From: a virus
Virus genome (UHGV): UHGV-0146833
Direction: 5' to 3' (one strand)
Length of the DNA stretch: 40,525 nt
Shown here: piece by piece, positions 2,249-9,027 of the stretch
Numbering within the stretch: the first letter of the stretch is position 1
Layout: every line of letters starts with the position of its first letter
The notes under the pieces: model-generated
Databases searched by the model: none
The model's input: the letters and a program-made list of their open reading frames with translations, nothing else
What the model was told of the DNA's origin: nothing
Translations under genes and position numbers: made by a program

Positions 2249-3031
2249 CTATTTATTGGTGATTTCTGCTGGCTTTAGCTGCGCGGACAACTGCTCAAGT
2301 TTTTGAACTGCCAGTTCAAAATGCGCGGGTAACGCCTTTTCCAGATCAGAGTTGATATCGGTGATGGGCAAATCACCACACGACATACTCCGCCTACCAC
2401 CACGAACAACATCACGCAACAACTCTCGTTCATACGTGCGCATGTTCCCCAATGCCGACTCAGCAGCCGTCAAAATCCGGCGCAGTTCTGCCGTAATTGC
2501 TGGCAAATCATCAACAGTTATGGGGTTCGGGGATGGATTACGACACGCCCGACGCAAAGCCAACCATACACCGCTAATCCAGGCATTTCGGTATTGAAAA
2601 CTTTGTGCAATATCGTTAATCAGCCCTCGCAGATACTCCTTCTGCCTCCAGTTCAACGGCTCCGCTGCTCGCATTGGCTCTGGCTCGACGTAAACGTACT
2701 CTCCATTTTTGCGAATAGAGGGCAAGACTTCGTTCGTTACCCATTTGCGAAACCGCCAAGCTGTTGTGCCTTGCTTCACCGCGTCACGGCAGCGGAGGAT
2801 CAGGGTGTATAGACCTGACTCTGAAATAATATTTAGCTTTTGCTCTCCGCCAGGGGTGTAACTTAAAGTTACACCCTTTTCATCCTCATCCAGAGACATT
2901 AGCGCCTTCCGGGAGTTAACGAGTCTTAAAGCATCACATACATCCTTAGCCACAAACCACGGCTCACCGTTAATCATCACTACACGAATCTGATGCTCTT
3001 CCTGAAACGAAAATACAGCTAACGCGCTCAT
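2249..3031 (-). CDS. Bro-N / KilA-N domain antirepressor-like protein (AntC-like position)
   Basis: N-terminal motif FQEEHQIRVVMINGEPWFVAKDVCDAL is typical of the Bro-N family; last gene of a three-gene coupled operon next to telN. Confidence 0.75.
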   Translation of the reverse strand: MSALAVFSFQEEHQIRVVMINGEPWFVAKDVCDALRLVNSRKALMSLDEDEKGVTLSYTPGGEQKLNIISESGLYTLILRCRDAVKQGTTAWRFRKWVTNEVLPSIRKNGEYVYVEPEPMRAAEPLNWRQKEYLRGLINDIAQSFQYRNAWISGVWLALRRACRNPSPNPITVDDLPAITAELRRILTAAESALGNMRTYERELLRDVVRGGRRSMSCGDLPITDINSDLEKALPAHFELAVQKLEQLSAQLKPAEITNK

Positions 3032-3261
3032 TTAGCCTCCTTATTGTGCTGCAATTGCGACGAGAGAGATGCTGAATACCCCTGTGCTTCGTGTGTTAGC
3101 TCACACGCAATTTGAAGGAGCTTCCCGGCTTCTGATAGATAAATCGACGCCTCACAGCTGGATACTGTCCGATGGGCTGATGACACGAGCGCATAGACCT
3201 GAGCCAGACGTTCATCCAACGACTCCAGCAGGCCAACAGTGTTCATTTTTACCTGATTCAT
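3028..3261 (-). CDS. Hypothetical 77-aa protein, middle gene of the antirepressor operon
   Basis: ORF in track; 4-bp overlaps with the ORFs on both sides (translational coupling). Confidence 0.55.
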   Translation of the reverse strand: MNQVKMNTVGLLESLDERLAQVYALVSSAHRTVSSCEASIYLSEAGKLLQIACELTHEAQGYSASLSSQLQHNKEAK

Positions 3262-3422
3262 GCAGCCACCTCGCGCACCGGAATACGGGCAGACAATACC
3301 AGGACAAACCGGCTGGCGAACTGGCGACGAGCTTCCCGTTCAGATGACGCGATGGTGGAAAGATGATGGATATGTGACTTTTTGTCTGTGCGAACGACTG
3401 CCGCAAATTTGAATTTGAACAT
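3258..3422 (-). CDS. Icd-like small protein (54 aa), first gene of the antirepressor operon
   Basis: Not in ORF track (<60 aa). Hand translation: MFKFKFAAVVRTDKKSHIHHLSTIASSEREARRQFASRFVLVLSARIPVREVAA. GGAG RBS 8 nt upstream; stop overlaps next start (ATGA). The ASSER-AR-FVL-RIPV pattern resembles Icd-like cell-division inhibitors as I recall them. Confidence 0.5.
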   Translation of the reverse strand: MFKFKFAAVVRTDKKSHIHHLSTIASSEREARRQFASRFVLVLSARIPVREVAA

Positions 3423-3423
3423 G

Positions 3424-3719
3424 GTATGCACTCCGTTTAATTGGTCGTGCTACCACCAGAGTTCTCACGCTCTTGAATGGTGGTAGCCCAAGCGGGGGTG
3501 AGAATACCGGCAAACGAAGAAACCGGCCTGACCGAAGTCAGCCCCGCCTGAGCCACCATAAATCGGATATGCGCAGGTATATACACACAAAAAAACACGC
3601 TGGCGCGTGTTGTGCGCTTCGTTTATCCGGGTTCTCACGCCCGGCTGCGGGATTTACCGCAGCGGAGTAACTTTACCGTCAAAACGACGCACACGTCAAT
3701 AATTTGCAAAGACATTTTA
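3424..3719 (-). promoter_or_regulatory. Structured non-coding leader upstream of the antirepressor operon; candidate promoter plus c4/CA-like regulatory RNA
   Basis: ~300 bp without a credible ORF; several inverted repeats (GCTACCACCA...TGGTGGTAGC; CTGCGG...CCGCAG; ACACGC...GCGTGT) and a repeated GTTCTCACGC motif. RNA assignment is by analogy with P1/N15 immunity regions, not shown. Confidence 0.25.
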
Positions 3720-3739
3720 CCCCGTGACCAGTCACGGGG
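3720..3739. repeat. Palindrome CCCCGTGAC-CA-GTCACGGGG (family CGTGAC-YR-GTCACG, copy 1 of 3)
   Basis: Read directly; 9+2+9 inverted repeat followed by a T-run on the plus strand. Confidence 0.7.
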
Positions 3740-3800
3740 ACAGGTGTTTTTATAGTTTGCTTGAACGAGTGATCAGAAGTTGATCGTTAATCAAAGGCCA

Positions 3801-4112
3801 TTACTGATTAAGAGATTGGAAATACCTAACTAACTTACCGGCATCATCACATTTTTCTTTATCTTCGTCCTTAACATAGCCGCGACAAAAGGCTGAATAA
3901 AATTTTGCATTTTCAGAAGCAAAAGCAGCCGTCGAAAGGAGCAACTCTTTGCATGACTCTTTTGATGCAGCATCGGGATTATTTTTACATGCAAGCTCCG
4001 CTGATGAGTTAATAACAGAAATGCTATCTTCCTGGGCATAAACCGCAGCAGAAAAGGCAAAACATAAAACAAAAATAAAACTCTTCACTTTATCTCCTGT
4101 AACAGTCATCAC
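3801..4112 (-). CDS. Small secreted Cys-containing protein (signal peptide, ~80-aa mature part)
   Basis: N-terminal hydrophobic stretch ending ...AVYA-QE typical of a Sec signal peptide; four Cys in mature part; AT-rich codon usage. Confidence 0.6.
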   Translation of the reverse strand: MMTVTGDKVKSFIFVLCFAFSAAVYAQEDSISVINSSAELACKNNPDAASKESCKELLLSTAAFASENAKFYSAFCRGYVKDEDKEKCDDAGKLVRYFQSLNQ

Positions 4113-4115
4113 AAT

Positions 4116-4523
4116 TCAATCAACTTCTTTAGCATCAGCCATACGATTCAACCAGGAATCAACAATCGGTTGCTCATCTACAGAATGTTTACTAGGTATA
4201 ACTCGCCAGCTATCTTGCGAAAATCTGCCGTACTTACGCGGGAATAGGCCTTTCTTTATCTCCCGCCATGTACTAGGAAAACCATCCACAAAAGTACCAA
4301 TTAACAGGAGAGGGACAAAAATCAGAGCTACAAACCATCGTGCAAGAAAGTGTTCAACAACAACATTTTCACCGTTGTAGTAATACGCATACGCATCCAA
4401 TATGCGAATTTTCCTTACCTTAAAAATAGCCTTATGCTGAGAACGACTTAACTTGATACGAATGTATCCCTTATCCAAAGGGGATTCGTATTTGTATGAT
4501 TGAACAGCCATTTTTAACCCCAC
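4116..4523 (-). CDS. Hypothetical single-pass membrane protein (135 aa)
   Basis: Central hydrophobic helix WFVALIFVPLLLIGTFV; stop abuts next start; AT-rich. Confidence 0.6.
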   Translation of the reverse strand: MGLKMAVQSYKYESPLDKGYIRIKLSRSQHKAIFKVRKIRILDAYAYYYNGENVVVEHFLARWFVALIFVPLLLIGTFVDGFPSTWREIKKGLFPRKYGRFSQDSWRVIPSKHSVDEQPIVDSWLNRMADAKEVD

Positions 4524-4843
4524 TCACCATCAGCAAACAAAGCGTTATACTCTGATAATGGTAAATGATGCCCCTCAATTGCCAGATTAAGCCCCAAATG
4601 GGTAGATGGGTGCTCCTTATCTGGCTCCTCCTCCCACAATTCAGAAGCTAAAGAAGCTAAACGCTCAGCCGCTTTCACGTAGTTTTCGGTCCTGAACCAA
4701 CCCAAATTAATCCCACCATCAGTAATCGCCCAGGCTACTTTCTTCTCTTCTTCCTGAATAGCCTTAATGCGTCGATCGCACTCATCCCGGCAGAACTTCA
4801 GCTGACGGTAATCAAGTGTGTCCAAAAATGCAGTAGTAGACAT
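4514..4843 (-). CDS. Hypothetical cytoplasmic protein (109 aa)
   Basis: Strong RBS GGGGAG upstream of ATG; overlaps downstream gene start; AT-rich. Confidence 0.6.
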   Translation of the reverse strand: MSTTAFLDTLDYRQLKFCRDECDRRIKAIQEEEKKVAWAITDGGINLGWFRTENYVKAAERLASLASELWEEEPDKEHPSTHLGLNLAIEGHHLPLSEYNALFADGEWG

Positions 4844-4847
4844 ATTT

Positions 4848-5039
4848 TTACTCCCCGTTCACCGAAAAATCACGATAGAAACGTTTCCACATACGATAAG
4901 TCTGCGCGAGTTGTTCACCACGAAACATCGCCTTCCTGGCCTTCATGTTTTCCTTGTGAGACTTTCGATCTATGAACCAAAACCATTGCTGGAACACACA
5001 AAGCAAGAGACACAAAGATAATATCCACTGATTACCCAT
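4848..5039 (-). CDS. Hypothetical small membrane protein (63 aa), start overlapping the repA stop
   Basis: Internal ATG of track ORF 4848..5156; N-terminal hydrophobic helix (WILSLCLLLCVFQQWFWF); 4 nt before next gene's start. Confidence 0.4.
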   Translation of the reverse strand: MGNQWILSLCLLLCVFQQWFWFIDRKSHKENMKARKAMFRGEQLAQTYRMWKRFYRDFSVNGE

Positions 5040-8000
5040 AGAAAGCGCCCTGCTCTTCGTAGCTGCATGAGCTATTCCCGGTAATGTATTCTCGTAACCG
5101 CCGCAGTTCATTGCTAGACAAGTGATCCATGAACTCTGTGAGGTACAGAGATGCAAACGTCATAGCTATGCTGGCTGATGACCATGATGACATAGTGGCC
5201 AGCTCCTCACCGGAAAGCGCACTCATCGCCCAGGACTCAGGAACAGCCACAGGCAATACAGCCAAAGCCTGTGATATAGCTGAACGAGGGGGATCCTGTT
5301 CCTCCGTGTTTGTGGATCGCGTTTCACCATTCATATATATATTTAATGACAAATCGCGATCCACTTCGGTCGTTGATTTTTCTGCCTTGCGAGCTTTCAA
5401 CGTCATACCGTCCTCCTGACGTTGCGCAAGAATATCAAGCATAAATGCTACAGACTCAGGCTCAACAAAACGCAATGTCGGGCGCTTATCGCCATCTCTG
5501 CCGCGACGTTTTCCTGTTTTTAGGCCGAGAGAGTCGCAGATGTTTTTAAACAGTGCTTCCGGCACTTTAGGCTTCCCTTTTGGTGTCATAAAACCACCAA
5601 TGCGCAGAACGTTATTCAACAGGTCACGGCGTTCTGCTGTCATGAGATTATCTCGAGCGAACTTAAGGCGTTCCTGCGTCGCTTCGCCGGTCATAGTTTC
5701 AGGGTCGATACCGCAGTCGATAAAGTACTGCCGGAGAGTTGCTGATTTAAGCGCATAGAATCCGCGCATGCCGACCTCAACAGCTGGGGTGGCTTTTACC
5801 TTGTAGTCGATTATTCCCGGAAATTTCGCTTTGAATACATCATCAGCCTGCTCGCGTGTCATCGCGGTCACCACAAAATATTGCCACTGTCCGGTCTGGC
5901 GATATGCGTATGTAAAATTGATAGCCGCTTCTTCACGGTCATAACGACGGGCAGTGACTTCATCAAGCAGCATCGTTTCATAACGGCGAATTTTGTCTCG
6001 AGCGCCATCGAAATAGAATTTCAGTGTGCCTTCTTCAACCGGTAATTTCAGTTCGTTCTCAATATCCCAGCGGACCAGTTTTGCCTGTTCTTCAAGCGTT
6101 AGCGCACGTTTTTTTAGTAGTTCTTCACGCTCTGATTCTTCTGGTGTCTCTGTATTGAGGTGCAGATCCAGCGTCTGTTCCCACACAATATCCCGCGCTT
6201 CTTTGCGCAGCTCTTTACCAAAATCGTTCGCGGCATAATCGGTAGCTAATGGTGATACCTTATAACCGTCGCTGTGCATGATGCAGATCATGTTGCTGGC
6301 GTAGTCGTTACGCGCAGACGCTTCAATTGCGGCTGCTTTAATTTTCATCCTGGTAAAGTCGGTATTGGCTACCCCCATTGATATACGGTCGCCATCGAAA
6401 ATGACATCCGTCAGTTCACCGTTCATGCCTGCGGTAGCAAGTAATGCCTGGGCGAATGCACGTTCTATTTTTTGCGGATCAGTCTCGCGTTTTGCACGGG
6501 CTTTATCAAAGCCAATAATAAATTCTTTTGCTGTACGGTCGCGGCGTAGCATTTGCACTGCGTCGCTGGGCACAACTTCACCGCAGAACATGCCGAAATG
6601 ACGGTCAAAATGTTTTTTCTCAAATGACACCCCGGAGGAAATCGACGGGCTGTAGATCAGTCCATCGTATTTCATCACCATTACTTTTGGCTGGCTGGTA
6701 AAGGCATCGACTTCTTCATCCTGTTTGCTTTTCTGGTTTACGCACAGAAATTTCTTGCCAGGGAAATGCATTCTCAGGGTGGCGGTCACATCTTCTGCAA
6801 AGGTGGAGCTGTCGGTGGCCAACATAATTTTTTCGCCATCCGATACAGCTTTCACCACCTCGGTCATGATGCGATCTTTTTCTGTATAAAAAACCCGGAT
6901 TGGCTCACCTGTTTCGCGGTTGCGAACATCAACAGGTAATTCAATTACGTGGATCTGCAGCCATGCCGGTAAACCTAGTTCTTCACGGCGTTTCATAGCC
7001 AGTTCAGCCAGGTCAACCAGCAGATCGTTCGCATCAGCATCCACCATGATTGGGTGTTGTTCCGTTCTGGCCAGCGCGTCAATTAACGTATTGAATACAG
7101 CCACCGGGTTTTCCATAGCCCGACCGGAAAGAACGGCACGTAGCCCTTGTGTTGCCTCGTCAAAGCCAAAATAGTCGTGCTGGCGCATCAACGGTTGCCA
7201 GCAGTTTTTAACAATCGAGTTTATGCAGATGGTCAGTTTACTGGCGTATGGAGCCATTTCCTGATAGCCAGGGTCCTGATAGTGCAGGATATCGGCTTTT
7301 ACACCTTTTCCTTCTGTCATCATTTCCCACAGGCCACCAATAAGGGAGACACGGTGAGCAACAGAGATACCACGTTCTGAGCTATGCATTAACGGTCGTA
7401 ACAATCCAGTAGATTTGCCGGAACCCATACCAGCACGGACGATGACTATCCCCTGTAGTGATTGCACGTACTTCAGGACATCATCGGTCATTACCGAAGT
7501 TTCAAAACGCTTATAGGTGATATGTTGAGGGCGTTTATTGGGATCAGTTATGCGTTCGCTGAAAGAGCGCGGAGCCTGGGCAATACGGCACTTTTTATTC
7601 AGGCGACGGGCAATGTGGTCTTTTACCGTAGCGCGATAGATATTTTCCAGTCCCATTTCACGCAGAACGATGCAGAACATGTTAAATAAATCTGACGGAC
7701 TGTTAGGAACCGGACAGGTTAGCATGCCAATATCCACCGCTCTCAGCAGCTCTTTGGCAAAAGTACGACGGTTATCCCGCTTAATTGTCTTCAGGCGGTT
7801 GAGCGTCAGAGATAGCAAATCAGTGCCGGTTTTCAGGCGGTTTGCTGTTGCGAATAGTTGACGTGCTGTTTCACGAAGTCCACGTAGTTTGTGCAGGTCG
7901 TTGAAGTCACTGCACTCCATTTGCGGATCGTCTTCAAAAGTTGGGTAGACGCAGCGGACATCGTTGAATTTAGATAAGATTTCATAGCCAGTCCGCAGGC

Positions 8001-9027
8001 CGGTATTCCCTTTTCCTTCTGTGGCTGATTTCCGGTCATTATCCAGTGCGCAGGTGATTTTTGCCGCTGGGTACATGTTTACCAGTTGTTCCACAACATG
8101 AACCATGTTGTTAGCGGATACAGCGACAACCACAGCGTCAAAGCGTTTATCTTTTTTCGTGGCAAGCCAGATGGATGCACCAGTAGCAAAACCTTCTGTA
8201 ACAGCGATGTTTTGCGCCCCTTTCAGCTCACCGATAACAAAGCAGGCACCGACGAAATCGCCGCTGGTTACTGCGGTGGTCTGGTATTTCCCACCTTGTT
8301 TGTCGATTCGCTGCCAACCCACAATACGACCATCGTAACGACCGTCCAGATGAGCCAGAGGGATAGCCATATATGTGGTTGGCCCCCGGCTCCATTTCGC
8401 ACTGTCGTGACTGGTCACGCGACGCACATCACACGAATTAAAAACGTCACGAATACCTTTTTTAATCGCATATGGCCATGAGCCGTCTTCTGCAGGAGCA
8501 TGTTCCCACGCGCTGTGGAATGCCAGCCATCCCAGCAAACGTTCATGGTCCATTTGGTTGTTTTTCAGGTCATTAATTCGTTTTTGTTCTTCACGGCGAC
8601 GACGTGCTTCGGCCTGACGTTCTATTCTTGCCCGTTCTTCTTCCGGTTGTGCGACCACGGTCGCATTATTCCGTTGTTGCTCACGGCGATATTCAGAAAA
8701 CAGGAAGGAGAAACCGCTCCATGAGCCAGCATCGCTGCCTTTATGGACGAAGTTAATGAACGGGTAATCAATCCCTTTGCTGTGTTCCAGCCTGGAGTAA
8801 ATTTCTACGCGTCCTTTCAGGCTCTTTTCGAGAGCTTCTGGAGATGTTTTATTGTATGAAGAGTAACGCTCAACCCCCCCACGAGGGTTGAGTTGGATGT
8901 TGTCGGAACAGGCAGGCCAGTTGATACCAGCCATTTGTGCCAGCTCGGTTAGTTCATCCCGTGCTGCTTCAATTAGCGAGAACGGATCGCTGCCAAAGCG
9001 ATCCGCATAGAAATCGTTTAATGTCAT
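5032..9027 (-). CDS. repA: Replication protein RepA (primase-helicase multidomain, N15 RepA-like)
   Basis: 1331 aa (N15 RepA is about 1324 aa by recollection); Walker A-like GMGSGKST in the C-terminal half; position between the telN side and cB as in N15. Confidence 0.85.
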   Translation of the reverse strand: MTLNDFYADRFGSDPFSLIEAARDELTELAQMAGINWPACSDNIQLNPRGGVERYSSYNKTSPEALEKSLKGRVEIYSRLEHSKGIDYPFINFVHKGSDAGSWSGFSFLFSEYRREQQRNNATVVAQPEEERARIERQAEARRRREEQKRINDLKNNQMDHERLLGWLAFHSAWEHAPAEDGSWPYAIKKGIRDVFNSCDVRRVTSHDSAKWSRGPTTYMAIPLAHLDGRYDGRIVGWQRIDKQGGKYQTTAVTSGDFVGACFVIGELKGAQNIAVTEGFATGASIWLATKKDKRFDAVVVAVSANNMVHVVEQLVNMYPAAKITCALDNDRKSATEGKGNTGLRTGYEILSKFNDVRCVYPTFEDDPQMECSDFNDLHKLRGLRETARQLFATANRLKTGTDLLSLTLNRLKTIKRDNRRTFAKELLRAVDIGMLTCPVPNSPSDLFNMFCIVLREMGLENIYRATVKDHIARRLNKKCRIAQAPRSFSERITDPNKRPQHITYKRFETSVMTDDVLKYVQSLQGIVIVRAGMGSGKSTGLLRPLMHSSERGISVAHRVSLIGGLWEMMTEGKGVKADILHYQDPGYQEMAPYASKLTICINSIVKNCWQPLMRQHDYFGFDEATQGLRAVLSGRAMENPVAVFNTLIDALARTEQHPIMVDADANDLLVDLAELAMKRREELGLPAWLQIHVIELPVDVRNRETGEPIRVFYTEKDRIMTEVVKAVSDGEKIMLATDSSTFAEDVTATLRMHFPGKKFLCVNQKSKQDEEVDAFTSQPKVMVMKYDGLIYSPSISSGVSFEKKHFDRHFGMFCGEVVPSDAVQMLRRDRTAKEFIIGFDKARAKRETDPQKIERAFAQALLATAGMNGELTDVIFDGDRISMGVANTDFTRMKIKAAAIEASARNDYASNMICIMHSDGYKVSPLATDYAANDFGKELRKEARDIVWEQTLDLHLNTETPEESEREELLKKRALTLEEQAKLVRWDIENELKLPVEEGTLKFYFDGARDKIRRYETMLLDEVTARRYDREEAAINFTYAYRQTGQWQYFVVTAMTREQADDVFKAKFPGIIDYKVKATPAVEVGMRGFYALKSATLRQYFIDCGIDPETMTGEATQERLKFARDNLMTAERRDLLNNVLRIGGFMTPKGKPKVPEALFKNICDSLGLKTGKRRGRDGDKRPTLRFVEPESVAFMLDILAQRQEDGMTLKARKAEKSTTEVDRDLSLNIYMNGETRSTNTEEQDPPRSAISQALAVLPVAVPESWAMSALSGEELATMSSWSSASIAMTFASLYLTEFMDHLSSNELRRLREYITGNSSCSYEEQGAFYG
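8406..8419. repeat. Palindrome CGTGAC-TG-GTCACG inside repA (copy 2 of 3)
   Basis: Read directly. Confidence 0.7.
8650..8665. repeat. Palindrome TGCGACC-AC-GGTCGCA inside repA (centromere-like family, copy 1 of 6)
   Basis: Read directly; resembles the F-plasmid sopC inverted repeat (TGGGACCACGGTCCCA as I recall). Confidence 0.7.

Follow-up and report, generated by a model that had tools for sequence, protein, structure and literature searches.

The window analysed here, a stretch of 40,525 nucleotides from the virus genome UHGV-0146833, represents most of an N15-like linear phage-plasmid of Escherichia coli. Behind the replication gene repA (5032..9027, minus strand, 1331 residues), which heads the transcription unit, four tightly packed minus-strand open reading frames (ORFs) are present in the ORF list between positions 3801 and 5039. 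They are designated w63, w109, w131 and w95. A preliminary description of this DNA had regarded the four as a single acquired accessory operon. The observation of the genes was correct, while the interpretation was over-unified: the comparison with related elements indicates that w63, w109 and w131 belong to a semi-conserved backbone, and that only the last gene, w95, is horizontally exchanged.

The gene w63 (4848-5039, minus strand, 63 residues) starts with the ATG at 5039-5037, which overlaps the stop codon of repA (5034-5032) in ATGGGTAA, and the overlap of the two genes is 8 nt. The gene w109 (4514-4843, minus strand, 109 residues) starts 4 nt past the w63 stop, and the strong GGGGAG ribosome-binding site mentioned in the preliminary description was read from the minus-strand sequence at 4851..4856, where it serves w109. 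For w131 (4116..4511, minus strand), the most likely start is the ATG at 4511, 2 nt past the w109 stop, which gives 131 residues, rather than the GTG at 4523, which gives 135; the 131-residue form is used in two GenBank records of w131 orthologues. For w95 (3801..4088, minus strand), the most likely start is the GTG at 4088, 5 nt after AGGAG, which gives a 95-residue precursor beginning with MKSF, rather than the GTG at 4112, which gives 103 residues. Most of the 20 aligned relatives of w95 begin at the aligned MK or MR, and six are called with longer N-terminal extensions. The overlapping or abutting stops and starts described earlier are therefore confirmed from the ORF list and the junction sequences, and the lengths of 63 and 109 residues stand, while those of 135 and 103 residues are corrected to 131 and 95. 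The packing of the genes makes translational coupling to repA plausible.

The nearest public records are N15-like plasmids from E. coli and Shigella and the phage PhiR46_1, with 92-94% nucleotide identity over 3400-5200. In the alignments with other N15-like elements, homology breaks on both sides of w95. It stops at 3778 and resumes at 4101 in pG749_3, the corresponding positions in YDC107_1 are 3785 and 4110, and in N15 it stops at 3789. The junctions of this slot lie at about 3778-3789 and about 4101-4110, just past the stop codon of w95 and just past that of w131, and the swappable segment (3779..4100) contains w95 together with its ribosome-binding site. Patchy presence with sharp junctions, as expected for a moron, was found for w95 only. 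Judged from these alignments, w95 (about 3779-4100) is the only part of the block that behaves as exchanged accessory cargo among the relatives.

Different genes occupy the slot in different elements. In pG749_3 (L009, 1904-2716) it encodes a 270-residue protein with a lipoprotein-type leader (LLSGC) and without a family match, and in YDC107_1, pEC12401-3 and pEA26_5 a 74-residue protein. In Klebsiella pHKP0018.4 (L022, 4754-6310) it encodes a 330-residue muramidase with a Pesticin domain (PF16754, e-value 4.5e-45) and, on the opposite strand, a 141-residue signal-peptide protein with a weak match to Pim (PF16765, e-value 1.3e-4). By these domain matches, the two genes look like a bacteriocin and immunity pair carried on a phage-plasmid. 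In the Klebsiella oxytoca element the slot holds nothing.

The sequence comparison suggests repeated recombination at the slot junctions. The right-hand swap junction coincides in the alignment with a conserved octamer that is repeated (CTGATCAG-type in the relatives) at 3771..3785 and contains two GATC sites at a distance of 11 bp. The break points of the slot were also observed to cluster at two short conserved stretches, 3771-3790 and 4101-4110, and a 33-nt remnant of the 3' end of w131 is kept in pEA26_5.

The three genes between repA and the slot show a different pattern of conservation. The w109 protein is 63% identical to N15 gp35 over 108 residues (e-value 1e-48) and falls into the same PHROG; at the sequence level it is its orthologue. 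It is 67% identical to a 108-residue Klebsiella protein and 76% identical to the PhiR46_1 orthologue. A tblastn search revealed the gp35 family in 115 plasmids from Klebsiella, Escherichia, Enterobacter, Salmonella, Citrobacter and Shigella, and in eight phage records. All 115 plasmids are typed as non-mobilizable, and the plasmid records inspected, like all eight phage records, are N15-like elements. The location of w109 downstream of repA in a telN-bearing phage-plasmid is as expected for this family. Sequences similar to w63 were found in 80 plasmids and those similar to w131 in 51, many of them Klebsiella records with 31-39% identity. In pHKP0018.4, repA is followed by a 68-residue w63 homologue, a 108-residue gp35 homologue and a 126-residue w131 homologue (39, 67 and 36% identity, respectively), and the first of these overlaps the repA stop by the same 8 nt. 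The w63 protein is 100% identical in PhiR46_1, and its orthologues are too alike for a selection test (0-1 substitutions); it is taken as a real gene because of the 39%-identical Klebsiella homologue. The w131 protein, found at the same position, is 96% identical in YDC107_1 and PhiR46_1, 63% in Citrobacter and 31-36% in Klebsiella. Because the gp35 family is widespread and pHKP0018.4 retains the same gene order, w63-w109-w131 appears from sequence to be a conserved repA-fused module of a large N15-like subgroup and not recent cargo, although it is still mosaic. The preliminary description had named homology to N15 backbone genes of known replication function as evidence against its view; w109 does belong to the backbone as gp35, yet none of these genes has a known replication function.

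The mosaicism is visible at several levels. The first place after repA is occupied by gp36 in N15 and YDC107_1 and by an unrelated 98-residue protein in K. oxytoca, and the second place in K. oxytoca by a DUF5448 protein distantly related to gp35. In pEC12401-3 and pEA26_5, a single 74-residue gene follows repA. N15 gp34 and gp33 show no detectable relation to w131; hhalign found nothing shared between w131 and gp33 beyond the membrane segment, and no relation between the gp35-family profile and gp34. Relative to PhiR46_1, nucleotide identity is 88% at the repA 3' end, 99.5% in w63, 77% in w109, 98% in w131 and 97% in w95, and the sequences thus compared indicate that genes are exchanged singly within the E. 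coli group. While the w109 allele is only 77% identical to that of PhiR46_1 between flanking genes at 98-99.5%, the plasmid OY754439.1 carries a 96%-identical allele. This pattern indicates, from the alignments, a gene-sized allele replacement. A distant relative of w131 was observed outside N15-like elements: a Providencia stuartii IncC conjugative plasmid encodes a 96-residue protein, similar in the N-terminal part and the membrane segment, at L025 5067-5357 in the nin region of an inserted lambdoid prophage.

The block was previously described as AT-rich and unlike repA. Its G+C content (GC) is 41.4% against 50.5% for the window, a value reached or undercut by 5.3% of windows of equal size. 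The deviation is due to w95, with a GC of 37.8% and a GC at third codon positions (GC3) of 29%, and to w131 (40.2%, GC3 35%). The values for w109 (46.4%) and w63 (43.2%, GC3 53%) are close to those of repA (48.9%, GC3 48%), so the description holds for w131 and w95 but not for the other two. A base composition unlike that of its neighbours, another property associated with morons, is thus found for w95 against repA, and the adjoining w131 is also low. The gene telN is equally AT-rich (GC 38.6%, GC3 32%), and therefore low GC alone is no mark of recent acquisition in this element.

The w95 protein begins with a signal-peptide-like sequence at residues 1-18, MKSFIFVLCFAFSAAVYA|QE, composed of a basic residue, a hydrophobic core and the putative cleavage site VYA|Q, and export is predicted. 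The predicted mature protein has 77 residues and is acidic, with an isoelectric point of 4.8. Four cysteines are located in the mature part (34, 46, 68 and 80) and a fifth within the signal peptide. A lipoprotein was considered and rejected, as the cysteine in the leader lacks a lipobox and is not conserved. The AlphaFold2 model built with the family alignment is a three-helix bundle (residues 22-33, 40-71 and 74-93) with a predicted local distance difference test (pLDDT) score of 77. In the model each cysteine pair flanks one helix-helix turn, and the natural reading is that the disulfides Cys34-Cys46 and Cys68-Cys80 would staple the two hairpins. The ratio of nonsynonymous to synonymous polymorphism (pN/pS) against PhiR46_1 is 0.22.

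The w95 protein matches phrog_26765 with an e-value of 4e-62. Its gene was found in 19 PLSDB plasmids, all from Escherichia or Shigella, and in one phage record. An exhaustive HMMER scan covering 1.84 billion representative proteins and a subsequent profile search revealed only about 20 full-length relatives with 29-46% identity; among the closer hits, many are versions of the same gene with a frameshift. The relatives with a source name come from Citrobacter, Klebsiella and Salmonella, and the family is rare, confined to Enterobacteriaceae and present in only three species-representative genomes. An N-terminal hydrophobic leader, the four cysteines 34, 46, 68 and 80, which are invariant, and a DK pair are conserved in the family. 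A Pfam scan of all 21 members yielded nothing consistent, and w95 did not match the Pim profile PF16765 at e-values up to 1.

A 45%-identical relative occupies the same slot of a metagenomic N15-like element whose RepA is 73% identical to that of the window, between repA and the icd/BRO-N operon. There the w63-w109-w131 module is missing, and a stretch of about 0.9 kb in which no gene is called precedes the relative. Where the surroundings of further relatives were inspected, these are encoded in siphovirus tail operons, between the tail-chaperone and tape-measure genes or after a gpI homologue. The original moron, HK97 gene 15, occupies the first of these positions, ahead of the tape-measure gene, and its product acts in superinfection exclusion (PMC3594210). 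Terminator-like hairpins flank the relative on both sides in one Klebsiella prophage, where HipA-like and TIR genes adjoin it; for the relative in L019, a promoter-like site lies at about 330 nt upstream. Genes with HipA_2 and TIR domains were also observed in neighbouring tail-operon slots of Klebsiella prophages that carry a w95 relative (L005 6112-7624 and L006 12797-13675), and such prophages suggest a cluster of accessory or defence cargo.

The preliminary description had listed two small membrane proteins, a cytoplasmic protein and a secreted cysteine-containing protein, and the predicted classes are supported by hydropathy and charge. The w63 protein, a small membrane protein by prediction, is hydrophobic at residues 5-23 and ends in a basic tail of 40 residues. 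The w131 protein is a predicted single-pass membrane protein with one hydrophobic segment at residues 60-78. The w109 protein is acidic, lacks a hydrophobic segment, carries a CxxxC motif and is predicted to be cytoplasmic. Envelope targeting of the products is thus consistent with the sequence features, which comprise two predicted single-pass membrane proteins and one predicted Sec-exported protein. The AlphaFold2 model of w131 from the single sequence was poor (pLDDT 58).

The preliminary description recognized no motif in any of the four proteins, and scans against Pfam, NCBIfam, PADLOC and PHROGs yielded only PHROGs of unknown function. The w109 protein matches phrog_10878 (e-value 1.7e-41; 1-105 of 104 profile positions) and the w131 protein phrog_15458 (e-value 1e-89), while w63 had no match in PHROG, Pfam, NCBIfam or PADLOC. 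PADLOC-DB 2.0 gave zero defence-model matches for the four proteins at e-values up to 1. Searches of the PDB sequences with single w95, w131 and w109 and with three family profiles, that of w95 among them, returned chance-level hits only. Nothing on function was found in the literature on PhiR46 and N15 gp33-36.

The slot is followed by a conserved palindrome and the antirepressor-control locus. The palindrome CCCCGTGA-CTGG-TCACGGGG at 3720..3739 (minus strand), identified from folding and as an inverted repeat, forms a predicted hairpin with an 8-bp G+C-rich stem and a 4-nt loop, without a proper U-tract; a terminator scan did not call it. The palindrome, the two GATC octamers just upstream and a promoter-like site are kept in all N15-like elements compared, whatever the slot contains. 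The hairpin was considered as part of the acquired cassette and rejected; because of this conservation it belongs to the backbone. The hairpin that was said to close the operon is therefore real, but it is a backbone element between the repA operon and the antirepressor promoter. The N15 copy carries two mismatches within the 5' arm that the 3' arm does not compensate, so that an RNA stem is not supported by covariation in the alignment. Possible roles of the hairpin are those of a terminator or insulator of the repA unit, or of a protein-binding site near the antirepressor promoter.

The promoter scan placed a promoter-like site TTGACG-18-TAAAGT at 3670..3699 on the minus strand, outside the four-gene block, where the antirepressor-control unit starts. 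Rfam matches to isrK (3590-3663, minus strand, 64 bits) and C4 antisense RNA (3476-3563, minus strand, 82 bits) follow, together with a match to the c4-a1b1 target just under the threshold (43 bits), and the matches together span 3476-3676 on the minus strand. By these matches, 3476-3699 corresponds to the N15 cA/immA-type RNA control of the icd-like, gp31-like and BRO-N antirepressor genes. In relatives, the equivalent stretch upstream of icd contains ORFs annotated as "ash family protein", which may overlap the RNA locus. In the ORF list, the BRO-N antirepressor operon is located at 2249-3431 on the minus strand and telN at 181-2076 on the plus strand. Relatives of repA are annotated as CyRepA1-family plasmid replication protein or primase, and after repA come a repressor-like gene and then lytic and structural genes.

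The best overall explanation is that the block is composed of a backbone module and a w95 cassette with a protective role, and a probability of about 0.55 is assigned to this reading. The composite architecture, which is read from the comparison of sequences, is held with high confidence, and a protective periplasmic role of w95 for the lysogen is given a chance of roughly one in three. The w63-w109-w131 module would be a set of small genes fused to the repA 3' end and semi-conserved as backbone in E. coli, Klebsiella and Citrobacter elements. It is probably co-transcribed and partly translationally coupled with repA, and its products, two predicted single-pass inner-membrane proteins and a predicted acidic cytoplasmic protein of the gp35 family, would be made in the plasmid-prophage state and after induction. 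If all four genes are transcribed from the repA promoter, w95 would be expressed in the lysogen. As a unit separate from the module, w95 would be a 0.32-kb cassette of one gene, located in a recombination slot with the module on one side and the palindrome and antirepressor-control locus on the other. Its product is predicted to be exported by Sec, to be cleaved after VYA and to fold in the periplasm as an acidic three-helix bundle, where it could keep related siphoviruses from entering or counteract a toxin or muramidase that acts in the periplasm. A protective role is considered the most likely one for w95 because its relatives are found in moron slots, and because other elements carry a lipoprotein or a bacteriocin and immunity pair in the same N15 slot.

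Several points weigh against the composite, protective reading. None of the four proteins matches a family of known function in Pfam, NCBIfam, PADLOC, PHROGs or the PDB sequences. The promoter scan of the window found no promoter of w95's own, and expression in the lysogen rests on an assumed read-through from repA; the co-transcription, export, cleavage and disulfide pairing of w95 are predictions. N15 itself shares only gp35, as gp33, gp34 and gp36 are unrelated to w131 and w63, and the term "backbone" therefore applies to one subgroup of the N15-like elements rather than to all of them.

The main alternative for w95, although a doubtful one, is a conversion or host-fitness factor apart from defence, with a function in periplasmic stress, metal binding or host interaction, while the module would be early-gene filler like the lambda nin ORFs. 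Morons have many roles besides exclusion (PMC3594210), no defence family is matched, and the cysteine region of w95 has a very weak match (e-value about 0.1) to DUF2385/TIGR02301, a family of unknown function; the distant w131 relative in a nin region fits the filler part. Nothing specific speaks against such a factor; the neighbours in the slot and the gp15-type position of relatives favour competition or exclusion, but by association only.

It is unlikely, though somewhat less so than the readings dismissed below, that the w63-w109-w131 module serves the plasmid-prophage lifestyle, as a membrane tether for RepA or the linear DNA or in the tuning of copy number or of lysis and lysogeny. The fixed position of the module and its overlap with the repA stop in E. 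coli and Klebsiella elements, the finding of the gp35 family only in N15-like elements, and the predicted membrane type of two of the three proteins are consistent with this. However, repA alone is reported to be a working replicon in the N15-like phage group (PMC10612081), and an essential replication role of the three genes is therefore unlikely. The unrelated proteins that N15 and K. oxytoca have at the first and third places, and the presence of only one 74-residue gene after repA in pEC12401-3 and pEA26_5, also argue against it. An extended proposal, equally improbable, combines both parts of the block. In temperate siphoviruses of the lambda-like and N15-like kinds, the w95 family would represent an undescribed structural class of periplasmic proteins for superinfection exclusion or immunity. 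These disulfide-stapled three-helix proteins would intercept tape-measure or tail-tip proteins of incoming phages, or a muramidase toxin active in the periplasm, and would have moved between tail-operon moron slots and the repA-distal slot of linear phage-plasmids. The replication or maintenance of telomere phages would, in addition, have a membrane-associated accessory in the repA-fused w63-gp35-w131 module.

That the four genes form one functional system acquired together, such as a membrane complex with a secreted partner, is very unlikely. The tight packing and coupling, the arrangement of four genes common to some 19 to 24 E. coli and Shigella plasmids, and the predicted envelope direction of three of the four products would fit such a unit. 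Yet w131 is present without w95 in YDC107_1, pG749_3, Klebsiella and Citrobacter, relatives of w95 are present without the other three genes in another N15-like element and in tail operons, and w109 is present in N15 without w63, w131 and w95. Nucleotide identity varies gene by gene, and the AT-richness is limited to w131 and w95.

The 96%-identical orthologue of w95 in PhiR46_1 (PV340565.1; L001 3086-3373) is labelled "Spackle exclusion protein", and w95 and T4 Spackle (gp61.3), the periplasmic inhibitor of the T-even tail-spike lysozyme, are alike in size (95 and 97 residues), in the presence of a signal peptide and in a helical, acidic mature part with disulfide-forming cysteines (PMC7677548). 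BLASTP of w95 against T4 Spackle gave an e-value of 41, and phmmer and the w95-family profile found nothing related among the PDB sequences, where the published structures of Spackle (PMC7677548) are expected to be present. The two proteins belong to different PHROGs (26765 for w95, 1586 for Spackle), and a profile-sequence hhalign of the w95 family with Spackle aligned 16 signal-peptide residues only, with a probability of 22%. In the published structure, the short helices of Spackle pack into a flat bundle with only one disulfide, Cys29-Cys81 (PMC7677548), whereas the w95 model has three long helices and four cysteines; a fold search with this model did not recover T4 Spackle. True homology is thus extremely improbable, and the label was rejected as unsupported, since the resemblance is limited to signal peptides and has the appearance of an annotation artefact. 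The w95 protein may work in a Spackle-like way, as a periplasmic inhibitor.

In such phage genomes, orphan genes of small size and exchanges of single genes are usual, and a phage specialist would find nothing surprising here. The block is of a known kind, that is, phage backbone orphan genes with a moron-type cargo gene, and is ordinary mosaic cargo. The separation of backbone and cargo behind repA defines a 0.3-kb slot in which genes of benefit to the lysogen can be sought. The analysis also draws attention to a rare, uncharacterised family with four cysteines, predicted to be secreted, whose members turn up repeatedly at classic moron positions and can be tested at low cost for phage exclusion or bacteriocin immunity. 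As the public "Spackle" label rests on signal-peptide resemblance alone, its correction should stop its spread.

Besides T4 Spackle, four known systems are suitable for comparison. Like the lambda nin-region ORFs, the genes of the block are small, uncharacterised and located behind replication genes, and the distant w131 relative of the Providencia prophage lies in such a region; the replication system is another one, and the four proteins have no nin-family match. The Klebsiella Pesticin-type muramidase and its Pim-like partner occupy the same slot adjoining the conserved palindrome, and the partner, like w95, has a signal peptide and is predicted to be periplasmic. Unlike it, w95 has no Pim or Pesticin match and no toxin gene alongside, and is half the size of the Pim-like protein.

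HK97 gp15 has no sequence similarity to any of the four proteins, the best BLASTP e-value being 2.3. This YebO-like inner-membrane protein is anchored, whereas w95 is predicted to be soluble in the periplasm, and w95 of the window has no promoter of its own detectable by the scan. The likeness is one of position and layout: relatives of w95 occupy the gene 15 slot, one of them flanked by terminator-like hairpins, and w63 shares with gp15 a layout of about 62 residues with an N-terminal membrane helix and a polar tail. The block also has a counterpart in the uncharacterised N15 genes 33-36. Their products gp36, gp34 and gp33 have no detectable similarity to w63, w131 and w95, and N15 has no w95-type secreted protein. 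In both elements, however, four small genes lie at the same position and on the same strand between repA (gene 37 in N15) and the cA/antirepressor locus, w109 is the orthologue of gp35 (63%) as judged from sequence, and the downstream palindrome and promoter region are conserved.

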